In this document: positions 30,581-56,791 of the stretch, in pieces
How positions within the stretch are numbered: position 1 is the first letter of the stretch
Layout of the letters: every line of letters begins with the position of its first letter
NCBI GenBank assembly: GCA_007132905.1
Contig: SLNR01000020.1
Span: forward strand, 5,859-69,858
Direction of reading: 5' to 3'
DNA length: 64,000 bases
DNA from: Candidatus Sumerlaeota bacterium
GTDB lineage: Bacteria; Bacillota; SLNR01
The notes under the pieces: model-generated
Databases searched by the model: none
Told to the model about the DNA's origin: nothing
Seen by the model: only the letters and a program-made list of their open reading frames with translations
Position numbers and translations under genes: made by a program

Positions 30581-31501
30581 ATGAACATATTCAATCGTTT
30601 TAAACAATCATTGGAAAAGACAAGGCAGAACCTGCATAATAGCGTAAGTGGTCTTTTCTCTCGGCACGGAGGCTTGACAGAGGAAATGCTGGAAGAACTA
30701 GAAGACATTTTAATCGGGGCTGATATTGGTGTGACCACTACCATGAAACTGGTTGATACCTTAAGGGAGAAAAACCGCAGGCAGAGAATGAAGACGGACG
30801 AAGAAATTGTAGAGGTTTTACAAGAAGAAATCGAAAAAATGATAACAAACGGCACCAATGGAGAAGAACCGGTCAAACAGGAACAACCGCTTTTGATAAA
30901 TTTGATAGTTGGTGTCAATGGTGTCGGGAAAACGACTTCCATAGCGAAACTAGCTCACATGCATAAACAGATGGGTAAAAAAGTAATGCTGGCGGCAGCC
31001 GATACTTTTCGGGCCGCTGCCATAGATCAGCTTTTGATTTGGGGGGAGCGGCTAAATCTGCCGGTGGTCCATCATAAAGAAGGGGGAGACCCCGCGGCGG
31101 TTGTCTATGACAGCATTGAGTCGGCCAAAGCCAAAAAAATGGATGTGCTGATTGTCGATACGGCAGGAAGGCTTCATACCAAAGTAAATCTCATGGAAGA
31201 GTTAAAAAAGATGAAGAGAGTCATTCAAAGAGAACAAGAGACAACCGGCTGCGAGACGCTTTTGGTCCTCGATGCCACCACAGGCCAAAACGGGATTGCC
31301 CAGGCAAAAATGTTTCATGAGGCGGTGGACGTTGATGGAATTGTTCTTACCAAACTAGACGGGACAGCCAAAGGCGGGATAGTGGTGGCTGTGAAAGATT
31401 CTCTGGGGATCCCGATTCGATATGTAGGGACCGGCGAAAGCCTTGAAGATATAAGTGCTTTCGATCCAAAAGCTTTCGCACAAGCTTTGTTTTCGGTGTA
31501 G
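30581..31501 (+). CDS. ftsY: signal recognition particle receptor FtsY
   Basis: SRP-GTPase motifs GVNGVGKTT, DTAGR and TKLDGTAKGG. Confidence 0.95.
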   Translation: MNIFNRFKQSLEKTRQNLHNSVSGLFSRHGGLTEEMLEELEDILIGADIGVTTTMKLVDTLREKNRRQRMKTDEEIVEVLQEEIEKMITNGTNGEEPVKQEQPLLINLIVGVNGVGKTTSIAKLAHMHKQMGKKVMLAAADTFRAAAIDQLLIWGERLNLPVVHHKEGGDPAAVVYDSIESAKAKKMDVLIVDTAGRLHTKVNLMEELKKMKRVIQREQETTGCETLLVLDATTGQNGIAQAKMFHEAVDVDGIVLTKLDGTAKGGIVVAVKDSLGIPIRYVGTGESLEDISAFDPKAFAQALFSV

Positions 31502-31729: not shown

Positions 31730-33091
31730 TTGGAGAAAAAACACAGGGAGCTTCTAAAAAAGCTGGTGCCTTCTCTAAAGGATGTGCCGTCTGATTCAGA
31801 TTATTGGCTGAAGAGATCCGAAAAGGCTTTGGGAAAGAGCACTCATGATCGAGAGGTGTATCCCGTACTTGATCCCAATAAAGGAGAAGGGCTGCGCTTG
31901 TATGATCTGGAAGGCAATGAATATATCGATGTGACCGCCGGCGTAGCGGTAAAGGCGCTCGGCACTAGAAATCCCGACCTTGTGGCGTTTGAAAAGGAAA
32001 TTTCTCATGTGACCGAAGAATATTCCGGTCAAGATTTTGACTATATTAACCAAACTGTTTTATCTGAGCGCCTCACGGACATTACCCCTAATAGCAAAGA
32101 AAAAGAAAAGCAGTGTTTTTTTACAACCAGCGGGGCAAGAGCTATTGAAAATGCAGTGAAATCCGCCATGGATACCACTCGTAAACATAGATTTGTGGGG
32201 TTTCGACCCGCGTTTCACGGAAGAACGGGGCTGGCTCTAACACTAACTGCATCTAAAGCTGCTCACCGAGAGTATTTCCCCGCCGCTTTCCCCGTTGTAA
32301 GGGCTCCGTATGCTTATTGTTATCGCTGTCCTTATAATCTTAAACCTGAAGATTGCGAGCAGAAAGCTTATTGCGTCGAGCAGATCTACGACATGGTCAG
32401 TATGGAAGGAACCGATATCGCCGGGATTGTCTTTGAATCTATCTGCGGGGAGGGCGGAATTATCGTTCCGCCAAAATCCTTCGCGAAGGGTTTGCGAAAA
32501 CTGGCTGATGACCTTGACGCCGTTTTGATCGCCGATGAAATACAAGCCGGATTGGGAAGATCAGGGAAATGGTGGGCCTATGAACATGCCGGGATTGAAG
32601 TGGACACGGTTTGCGCTGCCAAGGCTCTAGGTGCGGGTTGGCCAATGGGTGTTACGATCGGCGATAAACCGATGTTTACGGCCGATGGAAGAAATTCTGA
32701 GACTTTCTCAGCAGAACCTAGGATGGCTTTGTTGTCTTTGTTTGTGCTCCATTACATTGAAAAGCACAACTTGATCGAGAATGCAGAAAAAATGGGAGCT
32801 TATATGCTCAAAAGACTCAATGAGATGAAAGAGAAATTCAAGTGTGTTGGAGATGCACGGGGACTTGGTTTGATGCTGGGCATCGAGATTGTTGAGGATA
32901 AAAAATCAAAGAAAAGGGATCCGGAGAAGCGGGATGCTGTCTTGAAAAATGCAGTTCAAAAGCAAAGGCTGCTAATCCTTCCTTCCGGAAAGAATACACT
33001 TCGGCTCCTTCCGCCACTGACAATCACCATGGAGGAAGCAGAAGATGCTTGCAATCGATTAGAAAAGGCTCTGGAAGAAACGAGCGTTTAA
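31730..33091 (+). CDS. class-III PLP-dependent aminotransferase-fold enzyme (substrate unknown)
   Basis: 453 aa with a TTG start. Motifs are TSGARAIENAVK, DEIQAGLGRSGKWWAYEH and the PLP-lysine context CAAKALGAGWPMG. Confidence 0.85.
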   Translation: MEKKHRELLKKLVPSLKDVPSDSDYWLKRSEKALGKSTHDREVYPVLDPNKGEGLRLYDLEGNEYIDVTAGVAVKALGTRNPDLVAFEKEISHVTEEYSGQDFDYINQTVLSERLTDITPNSKEKEKQCFFTTSGARAIENAVKSAMDTTRKHRFVGFRPAFHGRTGLALTLTASKAAHREYFPAAFPVVRAPYAYCYRCPYNLKPEDCEQKAYCVEQIYDMVSMEGTDIAGIVFESICGEGGIIVPPKSFAKGLRKLADDLDAVLIADEIQAGLGRSGKWWAYEHAGIEVDTVCAAKALGAGWPMGVTIGDKPMFTADGRNSETFSAEPRMALLSLFVLHYIEKHNLIENAEKMGAYMLKRLNEMKEKFKCVGDARGLGLMLGIEIVEDKKSKKRDPEKRDAVLKNAVQKQRLLILPSGKNTLRLLPPLTITMEEAEDACNRLEKALEETSV

Positions 33092-33092
33092 G

Positions 33093-33137
33093 AATTGAAA
33101 GAGCGCTCCTCTTTTTTGGAGGAGCGCTCTTTCAATT
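33093..33137. repeat. 19-bp perfect inverted repeat (strong hairpin or terminator) after the aminotransferase gene
   Basis: AATTGAAAGAGCGCTCCTC-ttttttg-GAGGAGCGCTCTTTCAATT, read directly from the sequence. Confidence 0.7.
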
Positions 33138-33207
33138 CATTCTTGTGCGCGGAGTCTTGTTCTGGTATTCTACAAACTGAGTAGGACAAAGGAATGGAGA
33201 GGTGTTT

Positions 33208-34314
33208 ATGAAGATCGGCGAGCATAAAGCGATGGCGTTATGTAAACATTTTGAGATACCGACAGTCAACCACTATCTGATTGAAACCAGCTCAATCCCT
33301 GTGGATGACTGGGCACCCATGAAGATGCCGGTGGCTTTTCAAAAGATTTCTTTACAAGAAAAGAGCCCCACCCAAAGGGTTGAAGAAGAAGAAGATTTGA
33401 TTTTTTTTGTGGAGAATTTTTTTCAATCACGAGAAAAAGGGGATAAAATTTTCATAAAGGAGCTGCCGATTTTTAAAGAAAAAATCTTTGTAGACATGGG
33501 CATCAATTATCAAGCGGGGAGTGTTTTTTTAAGGATTGTACCTTGCAAAGGAGCTCTTGTAAAGGAAATTGAAATGGAAATGATGAGCGAGCAAGAAATA
33601 AGCCAACATCAGTTTTTTGAATTTGTCCGTAGCGGCGGGTTTCAGGGACATGTTCTAAATCAAATGGGCCGGCTGCTTTTTCGAATGACTCACATGTTTT
33701 TTCAGGCGGATTTAACAGAAGTCAAGCTGTCTCCCGTCCACATGACCCTGGAAGGGGATGTTTTGGTGGGCGGTGTTAAAATGGAGATGGATGATGCGGC
33801 TTTAAGCAGACAGGAGAAAGTCCTTGACTTTTATCGGGGAGATCAAGAAAACGATCTGCTGAGAGAATTTCGTCAGGCAAGTCTTGTCTATAGAGCAATT
33901 GACCTGCAAGGAGAGGTCGGCGTCATTGCCAGCGGAATCGGACTCACTTTGTCCTCGTTGGATTATGTGGTGCAGGCAGGTTTGTCGGCGTGCGGAAGTC
34001 TTGTTTTGGGCGGGGGCATTCTTGAAGAGAAAATGGCTTCCGGGGTTAGATTAATGAAAAAGATCAAGGGGATACAAGGAATATTGATTAATGTTTTTGG
34101 CGGGGCTAACAGCTGTGAGATTATGGCGAAAGGGATTGCCACCGGTTTGGAAGAAGAGCCGCAAGATATCCCTATTATTGTAAAAATGACCGGTCATGAC
34201 CAGGAAGAGGGATGGCGAGTGCTTGAAGAGGCGGGACTGTTTTTGGTTCGCAGTCCGTCTAGTGAACTTGCTGTGGAAAGCCTGAAGAAATTGACTTTAG
34301 CAGAAAGGAAGTAA
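33208..34314 (+). CDS. succinyl-CoA synthetase beta-subunit-like protein with a degenerate ATP-grasp site
   Basis: By-eye collinearity with SucC: IGEHKAMALCKHFEIP vs LHEYQAKQLFARYGLP; ILINVFGG vs VLVNIFGG; IIVKMTGHDQEEG vs VVVRLEGNNAELG. The GGRGKAGGV loop is absent. Confidence 0.6.
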   Translation: MKIGEHKAMALCKHFEIPTVNHYLIETSSIPVDDWAPMKMPVAFQKISLQEKSPTQRVEEEEDLIFFVENFFQSREKGDKIFIKELPIFKEKIFVDMGINYQAGSVFLRIVPCKGALVKEIEMEMMSEQEISQHQFFEFVRSGGFQGHVLNQMGRLLFRMTHMFFQADLTEVKLSPVHMTLEGDVLVGGVKMEMDDAALSRQEKVLDFYRGDQENDLLREFRQASLVYRAIDLQGEVGVIASGIGLTLSSLDYVVQAGLSACGSLVLGGGILEEKMASGVRLMKKIKGIQGILINVFGGANSCEIMAKGIATGLEEEPQDIPIIVKMTGHDQEEGWRVLEEAGLFLVRSPSSELAVESLKKLTLAERK

Positions 34315-34318
34315 AAAG

Positions 34319-35206
34319 ATGGCCGTCTTAATTGACAGTAATACAAAGATTATGGTGCAGGGTATAACAGGGGCACAAGGAGCTTATCATTCACAGCTGA
34401 TGAATCTGTATACAAAAGACCGCGTTGTGGGCGGGGTCAGTCCAGGCAGAGGCGGGATGAACATTTCCGGTATTCCTGTTTATGATACGATCTCGGCTCT
34501 GAAAAAAGAAGCCCAAGTGGATGCTTCTTTAGTCATGGTGCCTCACCAGCATGTCCTTGATGCTGTCTGGGAGGCTGTGGACAACGAGATTGAGCTGGTC
34601 GTCATTGTAGCAGAAAATGTTCCTCTGCATGATACCATACGAATGAAGTCGCTCTCTCGGGGTAGCAGGACAAAGATAATCGGGCCCAATACCATGGGCA
34701 TTATTAGTCCAGGGAAAAGCAAAATCGGTGTGATGCCGGAAAAGCTCTATAAAGAAGGGAAAGTGGGCATTCTTTCTCTTTTGGGCACGCTGAATTATGA
34801 AGCGGCTTGGAATTTGAGTGAAAACGGAATCGGACAATCCACCTGCCTGGCCATCGGAGGCGACAAGCTGACAGGAATCAGCATTACAGAGGGGCTAGAG
34901 TATTATCGGCTGGATGAACGAACCGAACAAGTCATCCTCATAGGCGAAACACCTTATCTTGATATTGAAGGGATCTATCATTATTTAAGCAGTGCTTCCT
35001 ACCATAAACCGATCTATGCCTTTTTGGCAGGACAGTCGGCTTCCTTGTATTACGGAAAAGATTTCTTTTCTCGGTTAGGTTGTGGCGAGCCATATCCAAT
35101 CGACATTAAAGAGGCGAGAAAAAAACTAGAAGCCTGCCGAGTAAGGGTTATGGACTCCATGACAGAACTTATAGATGGGATCAAAATGGCTCATCATGGA
35201 AAATAA
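34319..35206 (+). CDS. succinyl-CoA synthetase alpha-subunit-like protein lacking the phosphohistidine motif
   Basis: MAVLIDSNTKIMVQGITGAQG, GGVSPGRGG and GQSTCLAIGGD match SucD. The MGHAGA position reads FFSRLGCG. Confidence 0.7.
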   Translation: MAVLIDSNTKIMVQGITGAQGAYHSQLMNLYTKDRVVGGVSPGRGGMNISGIPVYDTISALKKEAQVDASLVMVPHQHVLDAVWEAVDNEIELVVIVAENVPLHDTIRMKSLSRGSRTKIIGPNTMGIISPGKSKIGVMPEKLYKEGKVGILSLLGTLNYEAAWNLSENGIGQSTCLAIGGDKLTGISITEGLEYYRLDERTEQVILIGETPYLDIEGIYHYLSSASYHKPIYAFLAGQSASLYYGKDFFSRLGCGEPYPIDIKEARKKLEACRVRVMDSMTELIDGIKMAHHGK

Positions 35207-35240
35207 AGAGCCTGAATATTTACGATAAAAAGCTAAAGAA

Positions 35241-36860
35241 ATGAGGGATTGTGAAGTGTATGATGTGATAATTAAAAACGGTATTATTGCCGATGGCACG
35301 GGAAAAGAAGTGTATAAGGGCGATGTAGCGATTGCTGGTGAAAAAATTGCAGCCATAGGAGATTTGGATTCAAGCCAAAGCCAAAAGGTCATCGATGTTG
35401 ATCAAAAGGTCATTGCCCCCGGCTTTATTGATATTCACTCCCACTCCGATGCCACCTTGTTAGCCAATCCGCTGGCTGAAAGCAAAGTTCGTCAAGGAAT
35501 AACAACAGAAGTTACCGGACAGTGCGGAACTTCGGCAGCGCCTGTGATGGGAGAAGGATTGAAAAGCATACAGAAACTCTATGATAAATTTGATGTGCAG
35601 ATCCAATGGAATACGGTGGCCGAATATCGCGCAGAACTCGAAAAGAAAAGAGTTTCTGTCAATACGGCCCCATTAATTGGCTTAGGGACGGTTCGAATGG
35701 ATGTGATGGGGCATGCTTCGCGAGCTGCTTCAGAAGAAGAACTGAAGAATATGGAAAAAGTTATTGATCAAGGTATGTCAGAAGGTGCTTTTGGAGTTTC
35801 AAGCGGACTGATTTATCCACCGGGCTGTTTTAGCAGCACAGAAGAACTAGTAAGAATGGCTCGTGTGGTAGCAAAATATAACGGACTTTATGTCAGTCAT
35901 ATCCGTGGAGAGAGCGAAACCCTTATAGCTTCTGTGAAGGAAGCTATTGATATTGGAGAACGCTCCGGAGCTCGAGTTCACATTTCTCATCATAAAGCAG
36001 CGGGGAAAGATAATTGGGGAAAGGTTGAAGAAACCCTTGGCATGATTGATGACGCTAGGTGTCGAGGCATTGACGTGGCGTTCGATGTTTATCCGTACAT
36101 TGCCGGCAGCACTTCATTGGTTACTTTGATTCCGTCTTGGGCGCATGAAGGCGGAACGGAAGCACTGCTGACTCGTCTTAAAGATGAAAAGATAAGAGGA
36201 CGATTAAAAAAGGAGATTCGTGAGGGGATTGAAGGTTGGGAAAATTTTGCGGCCGCCGCGGGCTGGGAGAATATCCTCATCGTGCGTCTTGAGTCGGATA
36301 AAAATAAGACATTTGAAGGGAAGACCATCGAAGAAGCCGCCAAACTTAGGGATCAAACCCCGATGGATACAATTTTTGACTTGGTCTTAGAAGAAGAAGG
36401 GCAGACTGTTTCTATGGTTATGTTTTTGATGTGCGAAAAAGACGTGGAACAGGTGATGAAGCATCATGCCGCCCATATCGGTTCAGATTCTGCAACAGTG
36501 GCTCCTTATGGAATTCTAGGATCAGGCAAACCTCATCCGAGAACCTACGGTACATTCCCCAGGGTTTTAGGAAAATATGTCAGGGAAAGAGAAGTTTTGC
36601 CGCTGGCAGAAGCGATTAAGAAAATGACGGGGGCCTCGGCGGACCGCATGGGCATGAAAGGAAGGGGATACATTCAAGCAGGTAATTACGCCGACATAGT
36701 GGTTTTTGACCAACATCAAATTGAAGATCAGGCCACTTTCTCAGCTCCTCATCAGTACGGCAAAGGAATCCATTATGTCTGGGTGAATGGCGAACTGGTG
36801 GTATGTGAAGGCGAGCATACCAAAAAAGGGCCTGGTAAAGCGTTGTTTTTCCAACCCTAG
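35241..36860 (+). CDS. N-acyl-D-amino-acid deacylase (D-aminoacylase) family amidohydrolase
   Basis: 539 aa. It has YDVIIKNGIIADGTG, the metal motif GFIDIHSHSD, and QGITTEVTGQCG with the family's Cys ligand. Confidence 0.8.
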   Translation: MRDCEVYDVIIKNGIIADGTGKEVYKGDVAIAGEKIAAIGDLDSSQSQKVIDVDQKVIAPGFIDIHSHSDATLLANPLAESKVRQGITTEVTGQCGTSAAPVMGEGLKSIQKLYDKFDVQIQWNTVAEYRAELEKKRVSVNTAPLIGLGTVRMDVMGHASRAASEEELKNMEKVIDQGMSEGAFGVSSGLIYPPGCFSSTEELVRMARVVAKYNGLYVSHIRGESETLIASVKEAIDIGERSGARVHISHHKAAGKDNWGKVEETLGMIDDARCRGIDVAFDVYPYIAGSTSLVTLIPSWAHEGGTEALLTRLKDEKIRGRLKKEIREGIEGWENFAAAAGWENILIVRLESDKNKTFEGKTIEEAAKLRDQTPMDTIFDLVLEEEGQTVSMVMFLMCEKDVEQVMKHHAAHIGSDSATVAPYGILGSGKPHPRTYGTFPRVLGKYVREREVLPLAEAIKKMTGASADRMGMKGRGYIQAGNYADIVVFDQHQIEDQATFSAPHQYGKGIHYVWVNGELVVCEGEHTKKGPGKALFFQP

Positions 36861-37147
36861 ATTAGTTATCCTTGAGCTTGTCCTTTTGGATAAGGACGCC
36901 TAATGGTGATACTAGCCATTCTAAAGTGAATTTTATTGCTTGGTTGTTCCTGATCGAAAATCTTCTTTTAGTTCTTTGCCAAGGGTTTCCCAGTGGACAG
37001 CTTCATAATTGTTTAAACGGTGTCGATATGACAAGCGAATTTGTGCTTATCGCTACTAAGGAGAGCCGTTAGCCGTTTTGTGAATATCATGGGATACACA
37101 GACCGGCAGCTAACTGCCGGATGGCAATTTGATGAGGGAGGGATTTC

Positions 37148-37435
37148 ATGAAAAAGGTAAAGGTTTACGGAAGCAAACACTGCCCGGACTGTAAACCTGT
37201 CTTGGATTTGCTGTTTGCCCACGGGATCGAATTTGAGTATGCAGATATCACAGAAGGGTTGTGGCAGGTCAAAGAGTTTTTAGATCTGCGGGAGAACCGT
37301 TCTGAATTCAACCGGATTCGGAAATCGGGGGCCATCGGGTTTCCCTGCATCGTTGTCGGTGATGAAGAAGCGATCTTTTTTCAGGATTTTGACATCGAAG
37401 AACTGGCTGCCCTTGTCAAAAGCAAAAAGCAGTGA
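37148..37435 (+). CDS. glutaredoxin-like thioredoxin-fold protein
   Basis: 95 aa. It has the CPDC redox motif after a beta-strand (KVYGSKHCPDC) and GFPCIVVG. GAGGGAGGG lies upstream. Confidence 0.7.
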   Translation: MKKVKVYGSKHCPDCKPVLDLLFAHGIEFEYADITEGLWQVKEFLDLRENRSEFNRIRKSGAIGFPCIVVGDEEAIFFQDFDIEELAALVKSKKQ

Positions 37436-37841
37436 TTTTGTTTGCGTTGAAAAAGAAACAGCGTAAAGATGAGATTTAACTGGTGGGCCCTCAAATAGAA
37501 AGGCGTTGACAAAACCTGCCGGGAAAAGAGTTACATGAGTATGCCCCGGGTACTACAAGCGTGGCCGCTGAGTCAGTCAGCTGCTTTGTACCTTTTGTGT
37601 TGCAGGTTGGCCCTATGCAAGGTAAATGTTGTTTTAGAAAAAATGTTTATTAAAATAGTGTACTTTATTTTGATAACTAGGCAACTTTTTGTTTCAATTG
37701 AGATATAAGTATTGATGCATAAGATGAATAATGAGTGTTATTAAAAGATGGGATAAGGGAACTTCTTGATTTAAATTCCGTCTAATTAAAGGCTGGATGA
37801 TCTAAAAGTCGATCTAAAATTATTTATAAAGGTGATCTATA

Positions 37842-38363
37842 TTGAAAAAATTTAAACTTTTTCTTTTAGGAACATTCATAACATTGATATTATCATCTAT
37901 CTATGTTGAGAAAAACTATTTGTACAGCCCTTTTACATTCCCACAAGGAAACATAGATGATTTAAGCAATTATTCCTTTTGGGATTTCAAGAAGCCCATT
38001 GTTATGCAAGCAGTCAAGTGGGATGAAGGGGAGCAAAGTTTTTCTCATTATGTTACAAATGAGGAAGATATAAAAAACTTACTCCAACAGTTTGATGAAG
38101 CCCGTAAAATAAAAGCATATTCAAGCACTCCCGCTGAAGACAGCGGAGCAAAGTACAGTATAATATTTAGACAAGTTGAAGGATTTAAGCAAGTTGAAGA
38201 TTGGGACCATGATATAGCTCAAGGAAGGAATTTAATTGAATTCCGCTTCTATGAAAATTATGATGTAATTGACGTCAGTGGAGTACATTTTTATGAATTA
38301 GAAACCGACTTCAGACAAGACATAGTAAGTCTTTTATACAAAGAAAAATGGCATTATTGGTAA
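37842..38363 (+). CDS. hypothetical membrane-anchored or secreted protein
   Basis: 173 aa. A TTG start follows AAAGGTGA. There is an N-terminal hydrophobic helix (LFLLGTFITLILSSIY), the gene is AT-rich, and I recognise no family. Confidence 0.45.
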   Translation: MKKFKLFLLGTFITLILSSIYVEKNYLYSPFTFPQGNIDDLSNYSFWDFKKPIVMQAVKWDEGEQSFSHYVTNEEDIKNLLQQFDEARKIKAYSSTPAEDSGAKYSIIFRQVEGFKQVEDWDHDIAQGRNLIEFRFYENYDVIDVSGVHFYELETDFRQDIVSLLYKEKWHYW

Positions 38364-38503
38364 TAATTGTATTAAAGGGGATTGAGCAAATAGTAGCAGG
38401 TATTTTCCAATTTGTATCTAATGCGGTAGGTGCAATATACTCTTTTAGGCGACACAAATAAACCTTTAAAGAAATAGCGAAAGGCTACCAAAAAAAATTT
38501 TAG

Positions 38504-38531
38504 AAGAAGGCAGTTTATGCCTTCTTTTTTT
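38504..38531 (+). terminator. rho-independent terminator
   Basis: AAGAAGGCA-gttta-TGCCTTCTT followed by a T-run. Confidence 0.6.
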
Positions 38532-38917
38532 GCATTTTAAATTTTGCAATACTTATGAGGGCTTTTTCTAAGGGTTTTGGTAGTACTTCTAAAGTTAAAT
38601 TCCGAACAGGTTTTAAACAGCTGAATAATTTGATCCTCCCTATCACTTTTCTTGACCTTTTAAAAACTTCGGATATGGTAGACTTTAGTTTTAAAGTTGA
38701 TTGCTTTCTGTCGAAAAACAACGGTATATGGCTAAAGCTATTGAAAACAGAAAAGGGATTTGCTATGATTAAACAATAAGGATAGTCAAGCATGGGCGGA
38801 GGATCAGCAGAGCAAGTGTTGGCAGGGTCCGGGCCGGTTACTCATTTGCTTGTCTGTTCTGGCTTTATTAAGAAAGGACACAGTTGATAAAAAACAGTAC
38901 TGTTAGGGAGGGATATT

Positions 38918-40234
38918 ATGTTAGAAACAGCATTGAACGCCATGGCACAGCAGTATCTGGATCTGACTCTTTGCAAGAGTCGTTGTGATGAGTCAGATAT
39001 TCAGTGGTACACTGAAGGACCTTTTTGGCGAAGAACAAACATGCGCTTTTCCCGGGAGTACAAAATTCTGCCTGACTACGAAATTGGTGATATGAAACAC
39101 GGAAAGACTTTGGAGGACGTTCTGGATGAATGCACCCATTTAAAAGCAAATCTAAAGTTGTATAAGGAGACTGCTCGACCCGATGAAATGCAGCGCATCG
39201 ATTACATCATTGATCATGTGGTTAACCTCCACACTCGAACCAGGCTGCTTTTAGGCGAGAAAATACCTTATAACACCATGACCGATCTTATGTACGGTCT
39301 GGTGGCACCGGCCTATGAACTCAAGCAATTTGATGATATTCTCGGCGAAATGGAGCAGGCGCTGCCCGGCAGCGGATCCGTTCAAGACAAAATCGCCAGG
39401 TTCCGGAAAAAGATTACCGTTCCTCCTGAAAAACTTTTGCAAGTTATGACAGACGGTACAAAGGCCTTTCACGATATGTCAATGGAAAATATGACTTTGA
39501 CCGGCAACAGTATGCCGCGGGTAAGGGTTCGAGAGCTGGCCGATCCCAAAATGGAGTTTCTTTCTATTTTGTTCGGATACGATTATAATCACCTTGAATA
39601 CGAACGTAATTTCAATCTTTTGTTCAATTGGACTGTGGATCATATTGTTGAATGCATCGGACATGAAATGGAACCGGGGCACCTGACCTATTATGAAAAG
39701 AGAATACAGACCTATATCGATACAGGCTGGCCGGAAATGGCGGTCGTCTCCTTGTATTCTTCTTCATCTGCCTTTACGGAAGGATCGGGGCGTTATGTGA
39801 TTGATATGTGTTTTGATCATTCCATGGACAAGAAAGTAGATTTTGAACGGGAATATATATTTAAAAAGGCCGATCTAGATATGGGCTTAGTTGAATTGAT
39901 GCCCTTATGGCATCAATTCAGCGAGATGACCGGTTACGGCAAGCTAGAAGCGTCTCGCCGGCTGTGGGACGGAGAGTGGTCTTTAGAAGAAGCTTTGGCG
40001 TTTTTGAAGCAGTATGGGTTTGTAGACAAAGATACTCAGACAGCGGATATTGAAAAAATGGCTTGCGATATGGGCCACTTCACATCCCACGAACACGCCC
40101 GAGATGTGGTAAAAGAATATTTCCGCTCTGTAACCTCCTCTGTTGAGGAAGAATGGCGCCTTTATGAAAAGCTTTGCTGCGCGCATATGTCTATGCGAGG
40201 GATGCAGGACAAAACTTACCGTATCGATTTCTGA
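38918..40234 (+). CDS. DUF885-like putative metallohydrolase (HExxPGH motif)
   Basis: 438 aa. AGGGAGGG lies upstream. The motif CIGHEMEPGHLTYY resembles the DUF885 HE..PGH signature. No signal peptide. Confidence 0.5.
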   Translation: MLETALNAMAQQYLDLTLCKSRCDESDIQWYTEGPFWRRTNMRFSREYKILPDYEIGDMKHGKTLEDVLDECTHLKANLKLYKETARPDEMQRIDYIIDHVVNLHTRTRLLLGEKIPYNTMTDLMYGLVAPAYELKQFDDILGEMEQALPGSGSVQDKIARFRKKITVPPEKLLQVMTDGTKAFHDMSMENMTLTGNSMPRVRVRELADPKMEFLSILFGYDYNHLEYERNFNLLFNWTVDHIVECIGHEMEPGHLTYYEKRIQTYIDTGWPEMAVVSLYSSSSAFTEGSGRYVIDMCFDHSMDKKVDFEREYIFKKADLDMGLVELMPLWHQFSEMTGYGKLEASRRLWDGEWSLEEALAFLKQYGFVDKDTQTADIEKMACDMGHFTSHEHARDVVKEYFRSVTSSVEEEWRLYEKLCCAHMSMRGMQDKTYRIDF

Positions 40235-40326
40235 TTTTTTTCTTTCGAGTGCGATCAAAGAAGAAAACCTTAATAGCAAAGTGACCTGCTTCTGTCAAGT
40301 GGAAGTAAAAAAAAGATAAACCTCTG

Positions 40327-40360
40327 ACACCAATCATGTAACTATGGTTGGTGTTGTTTT
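40327..40360 (+). terminator. rho-independent terminator after the DUF885-like gene
   Basis: ACACCAATCAT-gtaact-ATGGTTGGTGT is an 11 bp stem with one G-U pair, followed by TGTTTT. Confidence 0.6.
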
Positions 40361-40545
40361 CCAGTTGCTGAACTAAAAAAGAGTGCCCTTACTAAGGGGT
40401 CTATTCAGTTTGACCTTTTCAAATATCGAGGCTCATATTGTCATGAGCAATCTATTCGATCTGCCGCTTTTTGGCTTTTAAGCACTGCAAATACTTTTGT
40501 GTCGGTCCTCTTAAAATCTTCTGACAGGGCGGTTTTTTAAACCTG

Positions 40546-40668
40546 TTATGAGGACTTATATTTCATGAGCGAAAAGGTCTTGCCGGACAGATCTGCTTGG
40601 CTTAATCCTTTAATATTCCGAAGTTGTTCGACTTCCGACTGAGTCATGTTGAAGATTTTCTCTCTCAT
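40546..40668 (-). pseudogene. possible remnant of an XRE-family HTH regulator (40-codon ORF)
   Basis: The minus-strand ORF reads MREKIFNMTQSEVEQLRNIKGLSQADLSGKTFSLMKYKSS. LR..KGLSQADLS resembles an XRE helix-turn-helix. There is no good RBS and it is truncated. Confidence 0.25.
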
Positions 40669-40739
40669 AGGTGATATTTTATCAGAATAAATTTGACGTG
40701 ACATTATCACAGAATAACTACAAAAGATGGCCTTCGCCC

Positions 40740-40768
40740 TTGACAGAACCGGATTTTATGATTATACT
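40740..40768 (+). promoter_or_regulatory. putative sigmaA promoter of ylxM-ffh
   Basis: TTGACA-17 nt-TATACT, about 40 nt upstream of ylxM. Confidence 0.55.
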
Positions 40769-40808
40769 TTATCCTGTGAAGGTATAAAGCTTTACAGGGG
40801 CTGGTCTA

Positions 40809-41195
40809 ATGCTTGACAAGGTGGTCAGGTTGAACCAATTATACGACTGGTATAGCCCGCTGTTGACAGATAAACAGCGGGATGTTTTTGAGCTTTATTA
40901 CCACCATAATTTATCACTGGCAGAAATCGCCGAAAATCATGGAATAAGTCGTTCAGCAGTAAGAGATGCTTTGCTGCGTACCGAGAAGAGGTTGGAGACA
41001 TTTGAAAATAAACTTGGTCTTGCCGAAAAGCAAGCCAAGTCAGAAGAGATTATTGAAAACATGCAGCAAAACAGGCTTTTGCTTGGTCCGGAGGAACTAG
41101 ATCGAAAAACACAAGAAATTATTCATAAGCTTCAAGAAATGCTAAATGTTGTCAATGATGTCTGGACTTCTGAAGAAAACAGGAGGGGATCGTAA
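40809..41195 (+). CDS. ylxM: YlxM/p13-like putative DNA-binding protein (UPF0122)
   Basis: LYDWYSPLLTDKQRDVFELYYHHNLSLAEIAENHGISRSAVRDAL is the YlxM signature. The gene lies upstream of ffh. Confidence 0.85.
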   Translation: MLDKVVRLNQLYDWYSPLLTDKQRDVFELYYHHNLSLAEIAENHGISRSAVRDALLRTEKRLETFENKLGLAEKQAKSEEIIENMQQNRLLLGPEELDRKTQEIIHKLQEMLNVVNDVWTSEENRRGS

Positions 41196-42538
41196 TGCTG
41201 TTTCAAGGCCTAGCTGATAGGCTTCAAGATACACTGCAAAAGTTAAGGGGAAAAGGGCGATTAACAGAAAAAGACGTTTCCCAGGCTCTCAGAGAAGTCA
41301 GAATGGCTTTGCTGGAGGCCGATGTAAATTTTAATGTAGCCAAGGACTTTGTTGCCCGGATCAAAGAACGGGCCGTGGGCGAGGAAGTGCTGACAAGCTT
41401 GACTCCCGGACAGCAGGTTGTCAAAATTGTACACGAGGAGTTAACCGAGCTTTTAGGCAAAGAAGAAGCGAAAATTTCAACTGCATCAAATCCACCGACC
41501 ATCATCATGCTGGTCGGACTACAAGGTTCAGGGAAAACAACGACGGCAGGAAAGCTTGCCGCTCATTTGCGCCGCCAGGGGAAGAAACCACTTTTGGTGG
41601 CGGCGGATGTTTACCGGCCGGCGGCCGTAAAACAACTTGCCGTACTAGGCGAGCAGCTCGATATTCCTGTTTTTGATATGGGTACTTCGGCTTCGCCCGT
41701 GGACATCGTTGCGGGCGCTAAAGGCCAGGCTGGAAAATACGGGCAGGACACTTTGATTGTGGATACCGCCGGACGGCTTCATATAGACGAAGAACTGATG
41801 GGCGAGCTTAAAGAAATTAAGAGCAAGGCCAAACCACAAGAGATTCTTTTGGTGGTGGACGCCATGACAGGACAAGATGCGGTTAAAATAGCCGAGAGCT
41901 TTCATGAGTCTTTAGGCATTGACGGTTTAATTATGACAAAGATGGATGGAGATACGCGGGGTGGAGCTGCTCTTTCCGCCAAATCAGTAACCGGCCGGCC
42001 CATTAAGTTCGCCGGAACGGGCGAAAAGCTTGATGCGTTTGAAGTATTTCATCCGGAAAGAGTTGCGTCGCGCATATTGGGCATGGGAGATATGCTGACT
42101 CTCATTGAAAAAGCGGAAGCAACGGTAGATAAAGATAAAGCCAAAGAAATGGAAAAGAAAATTCGAGAAGCCGATTTTACCCTGGAAGATTTTTTTGATC
42201 AGCTTAAACAAGTGAAGAATATGGGGTCATTTGATGAACTGATGGGCATGATTCCCGGAATGGAAAAGATCAAAAAAATCCAAGGAGCTGCCGTTGACGA
42301 AAAAGAAATGGGCAAGGTCGAAGCGATTATTAGCTCAATGACCATTGAAGAGAGAAGGGAACCTTCCCTTATTGGGGGCAGCCGCCGCAAAAGAATTGCC
42401 AAAGGCAGCGGCACGAAAGTACAGGATGTCAATCGCCTTTTGAAACAGTTTGACGGGATGAAGAAACTTATGAAACAGATGAGCGGACAGAAAAAGCGCG
42501 GCGGAGGAATGGATAAGAATTTACCTTTTCTACAATAG
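41195..42538 (+). CDS. ffh: signal recognition particle protein Ffh
   Basis: GLQGSGKTTT, DTAGR, TKMDGDTRGGAAL and a Met-rich M domain. The ATG overlaps the ylxM stop. Confidence 0.95.
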   Translation: MLFQGLADRLQDTLQKLRGKGRLTEKDVSQALREVRMALLEADVNFNVAKDFVARIKERAVGEEVLTSLTPGQQVVKIVHEELTELLGKEEAKISTASNPPTIIMLVGLQGSGKTTTAGKLAAHLRRQGKKPLLVAADVYRPAAVKQLAVLGEQLDIPVFDMGTSASPVDIVAGAKGQAGKYGQDTLIVDTAGRLHIDEELMGELKEIKSKAKPQEILLVVDAMTGQDAVKIAESFHESLGIDGLIMTKMDGDTRGGAALSAKSVTGRPIKFAGTGEKLDAFEVFHPERVASRILGMGDMLTLIEKAEATVDKDKAKEMEKKIREADFTLEDFFDQLKQVKNMGSFDELMGMIPGMEKIKKIQGAAVDEKEMGKVEAIISSMTIEERREPSLIGGSRRKRIAKGSGTKVQDVNRLLKQFDGMKKLMKQMSGQKKRGGGMDKNLPFLQ

Positions 42539-47226: not shown

Positions 47227-48009
47227 GTGCAGACGCTGCTGGAGAGGGTGCGACGGATCGGAAAATTAATCTTGCGTTCCTATGGCGACCCGATGGATTT
47301 TGATGAGGCGGCCAGGATCATCGGAGAAGCTATGAACATCAATGTGTATATAGTAAATGGTGATGGCGATGTCCTGGGGGCGGCTTTATCGGAAGATTAT
47401 GATTGTCAGGTCATGGAAGAAATATTAGAAGAAGATCGGAAAATATCTCAAGAATTACTTGAAAAGCTTCTCAAGATAGAAGAGACGGTGACAAATGTAA
47501 GGGAAGAAAATGAAAACTGCATCGTAAGACCTTCCGCCGAATGCCCTTTTGATTATCAGATAAGCACCTATATTCCTATTTCTATTCGAGGAGAAAGGCT
47601 GGGAATTCTCATTTTGACCAGCCTGGACGAACCCTTTAATGAAGATGACTTAATTATTGGAGAATATGGTGCTACTTTGGTTGGTATGGAAATGATTCGA
47701 GCTCGGATAGAACATGCTGAGGAAAATGAAAGAGCTTCTGCCTCGATTGAACTTGTGTTAAGAACTATTTCATATTCTGAGCTGATTGCGATTGAATCGG
47801 TCCTTCAAGAATTAAATGGCGATGAGGGAGTTATTACTGCTGCAAAAGTAGCGGATCAGGCAGGGATTACCCGTTCTGTCATCGTCAATGCGTTGAGAAA
47901 ACTGGAAAGTGCCGGCATTATTAACTCCCGGTCGCTGGGCATGAAAGGGACGTATGTGAAGATTTTAAATGACCAATTGCTTGATGCGATTGAAGAGATG
48001 AGCAAATAA
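47227..48009 (+). CDS. codY: GTP-sensing pleiotropic repressor CodY
   Basis: The C-terminal HTH AAKVADQAGITRSVIVNALRKLESAGIINSRSLGMKGTYVKILN is nearly identical to the CodY signature. Confidence 0.95.
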   Translation: MQTLLERVRRIGKLILRSYGDPMDFDEAARIIGEAMNINVYIVNGDGDVLGAALSEDYDCQVMEEILEEDRKISQELLEKLLKIEETVTNVREENENCIVRPSAECPFDYQISTYIPISIRGERLGILILTSLDEPFNEDDLIIGEYGATLVGMEMIRARIEHAEENERASASIELVLRTISYSELIAIESVLQELNGDEGVITAAKVADQAGITRSVIVNALRKLESAGIINSRSLGMKGTYVKILNDQLLDAIEEMSK

Positions 48010-51009: not shown

Positions 51010-51147
51010 CAAAGGCCGTTCAAATCAGGGTGATTCATGTTTTCCCAATCAGTTGGATAGGAGATCAAAGCTATAAGAAAAGGTAGAAAGAAATGAGATT
51101 TGCGACAGGTCAAAGCAGTTTACGAAAAAGATGTGGAGGTACTGCCG

Positions 51148-52311
51148 ATGGACTACTTTCTAACGGAAGAACAAGAAATGATTCGAGACTTGGCAAGACG
51201 GATCGCAGAGGAACGAATCAAGCCGCAAGCAGCGGAGTTGGATGAAAGCGAAACGTTTCCGAAAGAGATTATGCAGACCATTGCAGAATCAGACCTTTTC
51301 GGGGTGTATATTGATGAAGAACACGGCGGCTTAGGGATGGGTGTTTTTGAAAAATGTTTAGTGATCGAAGAACTTAGCAAGGCCTGTACGGGCGTTTCCG
51401 TGACTTTGGCCGCCAGCGGATTAGCCACCTATCCCATCGTTCTGTTTGGTACAGAAAAACAAAAGGAACAGTATTTACCCGATTTGGCCAGCGGAGAAAA
51501 GCTGGGTGCTTTCGCGTTAACCGAAGCGGAGGCAGGCAGTGATGCAGCCAATATCAAAACAACGGCGGTCGAAGATGGCGAAGATTACATTATCAACGGC
51601 ACCAAACAGTGGATTACCAACGGCGGAGAAGCCGATGTGTATGTTGTCATTACCATGACGGACCCCAACAAAGGGGTCCGGGGAGCGACCGCCTTTATTG
51701 TGGATCACGATAACCCGGGCATACACTTTGGAAAGAAAGAGAAAAAAATGGGGATAAGGGCTTCGGCTACGCGTGAAGTCATTTTCGAAGATTGCCGCGT
51801 GTCAAGGCATCAAATGCTAGGGCGTAAAGGAATGGGCTTTGTGGTAACGATGAAAACGCTTGATATCACACGCCTGGGAGTAGGGGCCCAAGCGGTTGGG
51901 ATCGCACAGGGCGCGCTGAATGAAGCTTTGGCGTTTGCTCGCGAGAGAGTACAATTCGGGAAAACGATTTCGTCTTTTCAAGCGGTTCAGCATATGCTAG
52001 CGGACATGGCCACCCAGACAGAAGCAGCCCGTTCATTGGTGTACAATGCGGCCAAAATGATTGACGGCGGCGCAAAAGACTATTCCAAGGAATCAGCCAT
52101 GGCTAAGTTGTTTGCCTCCGATACGGCTATGAAAGTCGCCACCGATGCTGTTCAGGTGATGGGCGGTTCCGGGTATATGCGCGATTATCCCGTTGAAAAG
52201 ATGATGAGAGATGCCAAGATCACCCAAATATACGAAGGCACCAATCAAATCCTACGAAATGTGATTGGACTCGATTTAGTCAAAGATTCGAGGAAAAAAA
52301 CAAAAAGGTAG
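51148..52311 (+). CDS. acyl-CoA dehydrogenase (butyryl-CoA dehydrogenase / CarC-like)
   Basis: MDYFLTEEQEMIRDLAR, ALTEAEAGSDA, QWITNGG and the C-terminal YEGTNQI with the catalytic Glu. GTGGAGG lies 8 nt upstream of ATG 51148. Confidence 0.9.
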   Translation: MDYFLTEEQEMIRDLARRIAEERIKPQAAELDESETFPKEIMQTIAESDLFGVYIDEEHGGLGMGVFEKCLVIEELSKACTGVSVTLAASGLATYPIVLFGTEKQKEQYLPDLASGEKLGAFALTEAEAGSDAANIKTTAVEDGEDYIINGTKQWITNGGEADVYVVITMTDPNKGVRGATAFIVDHDNPGIHFGKKEKKMGIRASATREVIFEDCRVSRHQMLGRKGMGFVVTMKTLDITRLGVGAQAVGIAQGALNEALAFARERVQFGKTISSFQAVQHMLADMATQTEAARSLVYNAAKMIDGGAKDYSKESAMAKLFASDTAMKVATDAVQVMGGSGYMRDYPVEKMMRDAKITQIYEGTNQILRNVIGLDLVKDSRKKTKR

Positions 52312-52322
52312 TGTGATGATCT

Positions 52323-53114
52323 ATGCAAATTGTTGTCTGCGTAAAGCAAGTTCCTGATACCGGGGAAGTCAAAATCGATAAAGAGACAAACACATTGATC
52401 CGCGAGGGAGTACCGGCCATCATTAATCCTTTTGATACCCATGCCATCGCGGAGGCCATAAAAATAAAGAAAGAACAGGGAGGAACGGTTACAGTTGTAA
52501 CGATGGGGCCAAAACAAGCAGAAGAGGCCTTAAAAGAGTCGATTGCTTTGGGAGTGGATCAAGTCCGGCATTTGTGTGATTCGGCTTTTGCAGGGTCAGA
52601 CACCTGGGCAACGTCGGTTACGCTCACAGCAGCCATTCGAAAACTAGAGCCGATTGACCTGGTGATCTGCGGAAGGCAGGCCATCGATGGAGATACCGCC
52701 CAGGTCGGTCCGGGCACAGCTGAGTTATTAAGCATTCCTCATGTGACAAATGTCCGTAAAATTGAGGTCCTCGAGGACGGCCGCTCGTGTCGAGTGGAAA
52801 GATTAACAGATGACGGGTATGAAGTTTTAGAAGTCCAGGCTCCGTTATTGATTACGGTGGTAAGAGAAATCAATCAGCCGAAAATGCCGTCGCTGCGAGG
52901 AATGATGAAAGCAAAGAAAGCTGACATTCCCATCTGGGGGCACCGTGATTTAGGACTTGAACCCGAAGAAATTGGACTGCAGGGGTCTCCAACATGGGTC
53001 AATAAAGTGTTCAGCCCGGAGGCGGTACAAACGGAAGGGGAAATTTTTTCAGGAACCACCGAAGAAAACGCTGAATATTTAAGGGATGTTCTAAAAAAGG
53101 TAAAGGCTTTTTGA
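52323..53114 (+). CDS. etfB: electron transfer flavoprotein beta subunit
   Basis: MQIVVCVKQVPDT, INPFD and GRQAIDGDTAQVGP. Confidence 0.9.
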   Translation: MQIVVCVKQVPDTGEVKIDKETNTLIREGVPAIINPFDTHAIAEAIKIKKEQGGTVTVVTMGPKQAEEALKESIALGVDQVRHLCDSAFAGSDTWATSVTLTAAIRKLEPIDLVICGRQAIDGDTAQVGPGTAELLSIPHVTNVRKIEVLEDGRSCRVERLTDDGYEVLEVQAPLLITVVREINQPKMPSLRGMMKAKKADIPIWGHRDLGLEPEEIGLQGSPTWVNKVFSPEAVQTEGEIFSGTTEENAEYLRDVLKKVKAF

Positions 53115-53135
53115 CGGTGCGGGGAGGTTTGTTTA

Positions 53136-54320: not shown

Positions 54321-54340
54321 AAAAGGCAGGATTTTCGCAA

Positions 54341-54364
54341 GCGGGGCAGGTGCCCCGCTTTTTT
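54341..54364 (+). terminator. rho-independent terminator after etfA
   Basis: GCGGGG-caggtg-CCCCGC followed by T6. Confidence 0.7.
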
Positions 54365-54444
54365 GATTTGGCAGGTTTTTGTATCTCTGTGGCGAAGCTG
54401 TTATTCTGTTTGGAAAAAATGCTTGCACAGAAAGGGGAAAAGTA

Positions 54445-55761: not shown

Positions 55762-55781
55762 AATGAGAAGAAAGAAGTGAG

Positions 55782-56786: not shown

Positions 56787-56791
56787 AAAAC

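Follow-up and report, generated by a model that had tools for sequence, protein, structure and literature searches.

Succinyl-CoA synthetase (SCS) is a textbook two-site enzyme, and its chemistry relies on a swinging phosphohistidine. Here we describe a pair of adjacent genes for a SucC-like and a SucD-like subunit (called β' and α' here) that have retained the SCS scaffold and lost the catalytic core of both sites. The pair lies in a stretch of 64,000 nucleotides (the window; positions 5,859 to 69,858 of contig SLNR01000020.1, assembly GCA_007132905.1) from a bacterium labelled 'Candidatus Sumerlaeota bacterium'. In the active sites of the 3-sulfopropionate-CoA ligase HpfYZ and of pig SCS, the Ser of SRS, the His, the Asn of GPN and a Gly of the β subunit bind the phosphate, Mg and the C1 carboxylate (PMC11489063). 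The distal carboxylate is held by a Tyr (His in HpfZ) and by the backbone of a G-I-V element (G-I-N in HpfY) (PMC11489063). In Pat, a domain of the same superfamily that has no His and is inactive as a ligase is retained as an acetyl-CoA-binding regulatory module (PMC8556138). An inactive, His-less member of the superfamily is thus already known; what appears to be new here is a free-standing α/β pair without either active site. We found no such pair in the literature on SCS pseudoenzymes, 'SCS-like' proteins and clusters of aldehyde:ferredoxin oxidoreductase (AOR) with aminotransferase; the only documented parallel was the domain without His that Pat acetyltransferases carry as a fusion.

The locus resembles SucCD, including the anaerobe-type clade to which HpfYZ belongs, in its translationally coupled β-α two-gene order and in the folds of both subunits (Foldseek E ~1e-28; hhalign probability 100%). 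The CoA-binding motifs and Glu208 of the α subunit are present, as are the GxG, GGG and GG loops of the β C-domain, and with the anaerobe-type clade β' has the motifs GG(I/V/A)N(N/S)CE.MAKGI and GH.QEEGW in common. Unlike SucCD, the pair has neither the phosphohistidine nor the phosphate-binding Ser, its His loop is six residues longer, and β' is without the Gly-rich loop and the equivalents of Lys46, Glu99, Glu107, Glu197, Asn199 and Asp213. It also stands between an aminotransferase and a D-aminoacylase-type hydrolase, and not beside a 2-oxoacid oxidoreductase or an aldehyde dehydrogenase as in the anaerobe-type clade. With Pat, the pair shares the loss of the catalytic His in a retained fold and a weak sequence similarity to 9isq/9it0. 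This similarity is marginal (E 8e-5 vs 1e-65 to SucD), and Pat is a single polypeptide of ~900 aa with an ACD-type domain order and a GNAT domain, unlike the separate subunits of 368 and 295 aa; a profile scan of the cassette genes found no GNAT domain in the pair or around it. FdrA/YahF-type proteins and ACD also combine CoA_binding with Ligase_CoA/Succ_CoA_lig flavodoxin domains, but their domain organisation is different, the NCBIfam scores are low (33 bits vs a cut-off of 433 for FdrA, 66 bits vs 567 for ACD), and α' is clearly of SucD descent.

The gene pair, its fold and its family

A reading of the DNA by a model that saw only the letters and a list of open reading frames (ORFs), called the sequence-only reading here, had reported two adjacent genes, 4 nt apart, for a SucC-like protein of 368 aa and a SucD-like protein of 295 aa. 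Both the ORFs and the homology were borne out. The pair and its relevant parts are as follows.

33208..34314, + strand: β', SucC-like subunit of 368 aa (ORF call, profile search, alignment and AlphaFold2 (AF2) model)
33340..33381, + strand: remnant of the Lys46/GGRGKAGGV nucleotide loop, β' residues 45-58 (FQKISLQEKSPTQR), shortened by a deletion of four residues and devoid of Gly and Lys46
33718..33780, + strand: former site II, β' residues 171-191 (EVKLSPVHMTLEGDVLVGGVK), with E197 replaced by K, N199 by S and D213 by G (E. coli numbering)
34319..35206, + strand: α', SucD-like subunit of 295 aa (ORF call, profile search, alignment and AF2 model)
34334..34615, + strand: CoA_binding domain (PF02629), α' residues 6-99, with the QGITGAQG, PGRGG, VP and E99 motifs conserved
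35036..35104, + strand: former phosphohistidine loop, α' residues 240-262, with a 6-residue insertion, no His and low model confidence

The start codon of β' was placed at the ATG at 33208, which has the ribosome-binding site (RBS) GGAGAGG 5' of it. A mechanical ORF list starts the gene at the GTG at 33202; the RBS and the database entry P0121 favour 33208. The α' gene follows after the 4-nt spacer and has its own RBS inside the 3' end of the β' gene.

When the proteins were searched against the PDB with phmmer, α' matched solved SucD chains with E 7e-65, most alignments ending around residue 241, just before the phosphohistidine loop, and β' matched SucC chains with E 3e-25 over residues 127-361 only. 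Pfam assigned CoA_binding (PF02629, E 4.8e-22) and a partial Ligase_CoA to α'. For β', the Pfam scan gave Ligase_CoA only and no match to ATP-grasp_2. The N-terminal half of β' is homologous to SucC as well, because hhalign of a five-member β' profile against 16 canonical SucC sequences spans 366 aligned columns (probability 100%, E 2.7e-60). The AF2 models have a pLDDT of 92.6 (β') and 85.6 (α'), and the α' model is weakest at the loop 240-262. The top Foldseek matches were full-length SCS β chains for β' (E 4e-29, TM ~0.55) and SCS α chains for α' (E 3e-28, TM ~0.71); the low TM value of the β' model is probably due to domain orientation. By sequence, profile-profile comparison and predicted fold, both proteins are true SucC and SucD homologues.

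Neither protein reached a curated SCS, malate-CoA ligase, ACD or FdrA cut-off in Pfam or NCBIfam. The α' protein scored 254 bits with NF004230 (cut-off 336) and 252 bits with TIGR01019 (cut-off 353), and its match to the NCBIfam SucD model ends at model position 240 of 291, before the His loop; β' scored 141 bits with NF001913 (cut-off 370). Placement of the pair in a curated family was rejected, as Pfam and NCBIfam give sub-threshold matches only. The sequence-only reading had known of no described family with this residue pattern, a view that agrees with the missed NCBIfam cut-offs and with the literature.

Six genomes carry the pair, all of them uncultured metagenome-assembled genomes (MAGs): that of the window, L001, L002/L012, L005, L006/L013 and L014. 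Genome records with the pair bear the label 'Candidatus Sumerlaeota bacterium'. A word-indexed search of 5.8 billion proteins returned four close α' relatives (51-55%) ahead of intact SucD proteins, and four β' relatives (42-45%). An exhaustive HMMER search of 1.84 billion representatives gave a family fragment at 340 bits, the next match being an intact SCS at 211 bits. Scanning GTDB genomes revealed 3 loci with the pair, and a metagenome scan with β' patterns added no further members. Among the window ORFs scanned at 31.7-36.9 kb and 37-60 kb (those at 1-26 kb were left out), no canonical sucCD was present.

In the next clade (P0129, P0130, P0132, P0134-6 and others), all catalytic residues are present. 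This intact clade and β' have the motifs GGINNCE.MA.GI and RGH.QEEGW in common; the pair is a descendant of the anaerobe-type SCS clade with GGINNC and RGHxQEEGW motifs. Of its intact members, L017 has a SucD neighbour and a four-subunit 2-oxoacid:ferredoxin oxidoreductase, and L015 has a SucD neighbour and an aldehyde dehydrogenase in a glycyl-radical/Fe-alcohol dehydrogenase cluster. This latter locus (L015 1574-10091; P0126, the nearest intact relative by word search) encodes a glycyl-radical enzyme, its activase, an Fe-alcohol dehydrogenase, an aldehyde dehydrogenase and the SucC/SucD-like proteins. The layout matches the published HpfG/HpfD/HpfX/HpfYZ order for 3-sulfopropionate formation (PMC11489063).

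Residues lost and retained at the two sites

Residues were mapped onto E. coli SucC and SucD from the K-12 record, in gene numbering, and the β' table compared eight family members with 16 canonical or sister sequences. The losses described below were seen in all eight β' and all five α' members and in none of 16-23 canonical sequences. SCS membership on the β side comprises the two-domain fold (ATP-grasp plus C-terminal Ligase_CoA) with its Gly loops, which is present, and Lys46, the GGRGKAGG loop, Glu99, Glu107, Asn199, Asp213 and the catalytic Glu197, which are absent. The K46 position reads Q/E/I in the family, and the G52-K56 loop is four residues shorter and has no Gly. E99 is K in every member, E107 is K/R/S, E197 is K/Q/M/T, N199 is S/A/V/T/G and D213 is G/S/A/N. 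All tabulated ATP-grasp positions are replaced or deleted in eight of eight β' members, as against conservation in 16 of 16 canonical sequences. The ATP-grasp half of β' keeps 3 of the 21 positions that are at least 90% conserved in canonical β subunits, and the C-terminal half keeps 17 of 25. The latter include the Gly loops G265, G267, GGG290-292 and GG320-321, and the G-x-N element for the distal carboxylate is kept as G299-A300-N301. The nucleotide site of the β' ATP-grasp domain is thus abolished.

On the α side, the CoA-binding Rossmann domain is present with its QGxTGxQG, PG(K/R)GG and GPN motifs. The phosphorylatable His of the (K/R)MGHAGAI loop (His246-α in E. coli), the SRSGT start of the 'power helix' and the GEIGG segment are absent. 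The α' protein keeps 69 of 101 positions conserved in canonical sequences, including the CoA motifs and Glu208-α (E210 in the window). The 32 lost positions group in three segments around the phosphohistidine pocket. In the first, SRSGTLT(H/Y)E..S has become SLLGTLNYE..W; in the second, GEIGG..EE reads GETPY in all members, and the Glu itself is kept. In the third, K(R/K)MGHAGAI is replaced by (S/T/K).(L/M/F)G(C/L/N)G.(P/L)Y after the 6-residue insertion, and the family consensus of the former phosphohistidine loop is YG...F...G.G.PY. The Asn of GPN is kept, and the Tyr for the distal carboxylate is invariant (Y160). In terms of the site-I roles described for HpfYZ and pig SCS (PMC11489063), S155 and H249 are lost in the family, and N124 and the β Gly are kept. 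The phosphohistidine and the Ser that holds the phosphate (SRS to SLL) are gone from α'.

The position equivalent to the His is C/L/L/L/N in the five α' members by L-INS-i. In the alternative register from MAFFT auto, an S/T of α' stands opposite the canonical His, and neither register places a His in this loop in any family member. H24 and H104, which lie in the CoA domain, are the only His residues that every α' member has; the C-terminal 190 residues, beyond residue 104, hold no conserved His in the family. A register shift that restores the His or the ATP ligands was sought with MAFFT auto, L-INS-i, phmmer against the PDB, hmmscan and hhalign, all of which failed to produce one.

The motifs quoted in the sequence-only reading were located in α' (QGITGAQG at 14, GGVSPGRGG at 38, GQSTCLAIGGD at 172 and DFFSRLGCG at 248) and in β' (QEKSPTQRV at 50, EVKLSPV at 171, VGGVK at 187, INVFGG at 294 and IIVKMTGH at 323). 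Its alignments had been made by eye, and the computed alignments recover neither the His nor the ATP-grasp ligands. Its claim that the phosphohistidine loop has no His holds with MAFFT, L-INS-i, HMMER and hhalign. The Gly-rich nucleotide loop that it reported missing from β' is missing in the alignments, including the hhalign register, and the Glu/Asn/Asp ligands that it saw replaced, at the equivalents of E197, N199 and D213, are all substituted. Its wording that every canonical catalytic residue was lost went slightly too far: it is right for the His, the Gly loop and the nucleotide and Mg ligands, but Glu208-α (E210) is retained, as are the Asn of GPN, the β GGG and GG loops and the Tyr/G-x-N pair.

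The proteins could still form an NDP-forming acyl-CoA ligase with non-canonical residues if the losses were alignment artefacts. The full-length fold with its high model confidence, Glu208-α and the Gly loops of the β C-domain would fit such an enzyme. We regard it as highly improbable: the register is shared by four independent alignment methods, a physical deletion has taken out the Gly-rich loop, and seven nucleotide, Mg or catalytic positions are replaced in all members, several with reversed charge (E99K, E107K/R, E197K/Q). The want of a conserved His in the C-terminal part of α' and scores far under all curated cut-offs also speak against it. Judged by every sequence criterion, the pair is unable to use a nucleotide, to form a phosphoenzyme or to relay phosphate between a nucleoside triphosphate and an acyl group, because the nucleotide site, Glu197-β, the phosphohistidine and the phosphate-holding Ser are lost; without such a relay it cannot be an NDP-forming ligase. 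The earlier judgement that the pair is unfit for nucleotide-dependent thioester formation is supported by the sub-cut-off scores, the lost ATP-grasp half and the lost His pocket. Taken together, the residue comparisons show that both sites have lost the machinery of phosphoryl transfer, and that the pair still has its CoA pocket and, at site I, the elements for recognition of a dicarboxylate's far end.

To assess selection, pN and pS were computed between the three closest genomes (L001, L002 and L005). Synonymous differences are saturated (pS ~0.7), and pN is 0.06-0.12 for β' and α', 0.05 for the aminotransferase and 0.08-0.10 for the amidohydrolase that flank them. Compared with L002, the window proteins are identical at 50% of positions for SMC, 64% for FtsY, 75% for the aminotransferase, 46% for β', 55% for α' and 61% for the amidohydrolase; the level of the pair is comparable to that of SMC in the same genomes. 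Within β', divergence is faster in the ATP-grasp half than in the C-domain (32-36% vs 54-62% identity to the window). Even so, 32 positions are invariant in the ATP-grasp half, many of which are novelties of the family (K84, S132-Q133, H148, G154-R155, E193-M194), and the family-specific invariants of α' are L154, L155, N159, W164, T211, P212, Y213, G256 and Y259. The pattern shows strong purifying selection on the pair and conservation of its new residues within the family. In the MAG JAXGQE01, the α' gene is split into 54 + 254 aa (L006 9895-10765 = L013 11131-11995) and β' is intact; the split is either an assembly-error frameshift or a real inactivation in one lineage.

Decaying pseudogenes, that is, relics of an SCS operon without function, would account for the lost catalytic machinery, for the faster divergence of the pair relative to its neighbours and for the split α' gene. 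In the other five genomes, which are 45-55% apart in amino acids, the frames are unbroken, and pN/pS is ~0.1 or less. The family-specific invariants, the conserved remodelled loop, the conserved gene order and translational coupling and the confident AF2 models are also hard to reconcile with decay. It was rejected on pN/pS and on the conserved novel residues, and we find it scarcely credible. Purifying selection and conserved synteny argue for a retained function, in line with the earlier suggestion that the pair may have been repurposed.

The cassette and the exchanged slot

A survey of homologue neighbourhoods, which the sequence-only reading had put forward as a check, revealed a small conserved cassette of amino-acid metabolism in all six genomes. 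Its gene order is rnc, radical-SAM, smc and ftsY, then aminotransferase, β', α' and Amidohydro_3, then ylxM, ffh and rpsP. In the relatives, β' and α' overlap by ATGA; the window has the 4-nt spacer instead, an arrangement indicative of translational coupling. The features around the pair are listed below.

30581..31501, + strand: ftsY, left border of the cassette slot, in conserved synteny
31730..33091, + strand: class-III (ArgD/AstC/GabT-type) pyridoxal phosphate (PLP) aminotransferase, first cassette gene, 73-77% identical across nine genomes
33092..33138, + strand: 20-bp perfect hairpin after the aminotransferase stop codon (GAATTGAAAGAGCGCTCCTC / GAGGAGCGCTCTTTCAATTC), terminator- or attenuator-like
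35241..36860, + strand: Amidohydro_3 protein of the D-aminoacylase / N-acyl-D-glutamate deacylase type, last cassette gene, by profile and structure matches
40809..42538, + strand: ylxM (40809-41195) and ffh (41195-42538), right border of the slot, in conserved synteny

In three further genomes (L019/L023, L020 and L021), the same slot, with the same ftsY and ylxM-ffh borders, has no β'α' pair. It holds a poly-ferredoxin (131-137 aa), a 616-aa tungsten-type AOR and a 77-aa protein ending in Gly-Gly (...AGG), which we read as MoaD/ThiS-like. The exchanged segments, orthologous to window positions 33139-35240, are these.

L019, 3288-5783: replaced slot
L020, 4340-6835: replaced slot
L021, 5121-7619: replaced slot

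The flanking enzymes in these three genomes are 73-74% (aminotransferase) and 58-60% (amidohydrolase) identical to those of the window. The difference is an in-place exchange of modules between two orthologous enzymes.

The aminotransferase matches Aminotran_3 with E 1e-90, its PLP lysine K298 and DEIQ motif are invariant, and its best NCBIfam match is the acetyl ornithine aminotransferase family. Homologues at 56% identity adjoin ornithine carbamoyltransferase or an amino-acid kinase and are, on these neighbours, ArgD-like; the contexts of homologues at 37-41% identity gave no clue to the substrate. It is unusually conserved, with 73-77% identity across genomes in which FtsY is 52-65% and SMC ~50% identical. 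Among the closest solved relatives are Pyrococcus proteins whose entries name an aminotransferase and amino-acid racemases of the class-III fold, so that a racemase activity of the window protein is possible.

Matches of the amidohydrolase include D-aminoacylase (1m7j, E 5e-91) and N-acyl-D-glutamate deacylase (3gip). Its metal and catalytic motifs HSH, GQCG, SHIR, SHHK and GSD are all intact, and we take the HxH, Cys, His, His and Asp of these motifs to have the same ligand roles as in 1M7J. Judged by their motifs, both flanking enzymes look active. The context of an archaeal amidohydrolase homologue (L022) had nothing in common with the cassette.

All nine orthologous loci have a hairpin just after the aminotransferase stop codon. 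The stems of the β'α' loci have GCGCTCC...GGAGCGC at their core and a T-rich run behind it; those of the AOR-type loci occupy the same spot and are as strong, but their sequence is different. The hairpin may partly terminate transcription and so give the cassette genes unequal expression levels. Rfam gave 0 matches in the whole window, where a riboswitch or RNA leader that would name the substrate had been sought, and a promoter scan of the window was not above shuffled expectation.

The cassette resembles the AST pathway (AstC/AstD/AstE) and the ArgD/ArgE acetyl cycle in having a class-III ω-aminotransferase of the acetyl/succinyl-ornithine type and an N-acyl-amino-acid deacylase with an intact metal site, and the sister genomes carry an aldehyde oxidiser at the place of AstD in the logic of the AST pathway. 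It is unlike these systems in that its deacylase is an Amidohydro_3 homologue of D-aminoacylase and not AstE or ArgE, and the oxidase of the sister genomes is a tungsten-type AOR and not the NAD-dependent AstD. A scan of the cassette genes found no acyl-CoA-dependent N-acyltransferase of the AstA/ArgA/ArgJ type. The overall logic of N-acyl amino acid, ω-transamination, aldehyde oxidation and deacylation may therefore be likened to the AST and acetyl-cycle arginine pathways by analogy only.

Several other regions of the window were noted. The ylxM-ffh border lies directly after the cassette in the relatives and ~3.9 kb past it in the window. The intervening segment (36861-40808, ~3.9 kb) is missing from all relatives and encodes a glutaredoxin-like protein of 95 aa (37148-37435), a 173-aa protein with an N-terminal hydrophobic segment (37842-38363) and a 438-aa protein without a Pfam match (38918-40234). 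Window positions 51100-57955 encode an acyl-CoA dehydrogenase, EtfB, EtfA with an N-terminal 2x[4Fe-4S] ferredoxin domain, an M20 peptidase, an ornithine cyclodeaminase/mu-crystallin protein and a second M20 peptidase, a cluster that suggests an amino-acid-fermenting lifestyle. At 26903-48009, and in L002, L005 and L006, the order is rnc-smc-ftsY-ylxM-ffh-rpsP-KH-rimM-trmD-rplS-lepB-ylqF-rnhB-codY, with CodY at 47227-48009 in the window. The rnc-to-codY order and the presence of CodY look typical of Bacillota, and the 'Candidatus Sumerlaeota' label may deserve checking.

Possible functions of the pair

Our preferred reading, which we hold tentatively and at rather less than even confidence, is that β' and α' form an SCS-derived heterodimer that handles CoA or acyl-CoA without ATP in the service of the cassette, and that it descends from an 'aldehyde to acyl-CoA to acid' module. 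Homology and translational coupling suggest that the two subunits would still assemble. The heterodimer may bind CoA or a (di)carboxylyl-CoA in the preserved Rossmann domain of α' and the preserved C-domain pocket of β', a pocket that still has the Tyr and the G-x-N backbone by which the distal carboxylate of succinate is held. The former site I could then run a step at the thioester level that needs no ATP, either acyl transfer to or from CoA or thioester hydrolysis. This step would serve the ArgD/AstC-like ω-aminotransferase and the N-acyl-amino-acid deacylase of the cassette. The ω-aminotransferase would make a semialdehyde, and AOR would oxidise aldehydes to acids. Intact relatives in the SCS clade probably act after acylating aldehyde dehydrogenases, taking an aldehyde through the acyl-CoA to the acid with formation of ATP. 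Given the AOR in the sister slots and the aldehyde dehydrogenase partners of the intact relatives, the slot plausibly encodes a module for an aldehyde or acyl product; the slot swap and the sister-clade contexts would be explained most simply if the pair lost ATP coupling and kept an acyl-CoA role.

Several observations weigh against this reading. No new conserved nucleophile or general base was found at the former site I, where the residue that replaces the His varies (C/L/L/L/N). The phosphate Ser has become Leu and the pocket is aromatic and hydrophobic, which fits a plugged, non-catalytic cavity equally well. In three relatives, E99 of α' is Gln. The cassette has no acylating aldehyde dehydrogenase or acyltransferase, and the conserved hairpin stands between the aminotransferase and the pair. 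The module that the pair replaces is an oxidoreductase and no CoA enzyme, and a positional swap may not mean functional equivalence. The AF2 models are those of single chains (monomers).

A more specific form of the exchange would have the pair stand in for the ferredoxin/AOR module at the same pathway step, handling the semialdehyde or carboxylate of the aminotransferase, for example by capture of the aldehyde as a CoA thiohemiacetal on behalf of a dehydrogenase with its gene elsewhere, or by binding of the dicarboxylate product. The exact positional swap between an orthologous aminotransferase (73-77%) and amidohydrolase (58-62%) speaks for it, as do the retained distal-carboxylate Tyr and G-x-N and the partnership of intact sister SCS pairs with aldehyde dehydrogenases. 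The pair has no redox cofactor site or hydride acceptor, however, and it has lost the phosphate/C1-carboxylate site. One module may also take the place of another in a variable slot by coincidence, and further unrelated genes have entered the region in the window. We judge this stand-in role to be quite improbable.

Alternatively, the pair may be a Pat-like pseudoenzyme, a sensor or scaffold that binds CoA, acyl-CoA or, in the remodelled ATP-grasp cleft, another ligand, and that allosterically controls or stabilises the aminotransferase or the amidohydrolase without any chemistry of its own. Pat-type proteins provide a precedent, with a weak PDB match to 9isq. The variable former His position without an obvious new catalytic residue and the hydrophobic remodelling of the pocket (to Leu, Tyr, Trp and Pro) favour sensing, and the pair has diverged more quickly than the enzymes at its sides (46-55% vs 61-75% identity). 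On the other hand, no GNAT-type effector domain is fused or adjacent to it. The replacement of a true catalytic module, the ferredoxin-dependent AOR of the sister slot, and the retention of the whole 368-aa ATP-grasp subunit, with its 32 invariant positions in that half, favour a catalytic role; such a subunit would be costly for a sensor alone. A sensing role is a possibility that we rate as somewhat doubtful.

Unlikely as we consider it, the SCS scaffold could also have been turned into a new enzyme in which site I acts on a CoA thioester without ATP, in place of the tungsten AOR module. A (di)carboxylyl-CoA:amino-acid N-acyltransferase and a thioester-cleaving enzyme are candidate activities. 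If true, this would be unprecedented chemistry for the SCS fold, a phosphohistidine enzyme re-evolved without its histidine.

The family is tiny (six MAG species), its organisms are uncultured and any function given for it is a prediction from sequence. The slot exchange with the ferredoxin/AOR module yields a concrete, testable hypothesis on the pathway step that the pair serves. A free-standing, gutted pair that is kept across ~50%-divergent genomes would be a clean natural case of pseudoenzyme formation or of neofunctionalisation. Close family members bear the name 'succinyl-CoA synthetase alpha subunit' in their JGI source records, and to name them so would wrongly credit these organisms with substrate-level phosphorylation by SCS.

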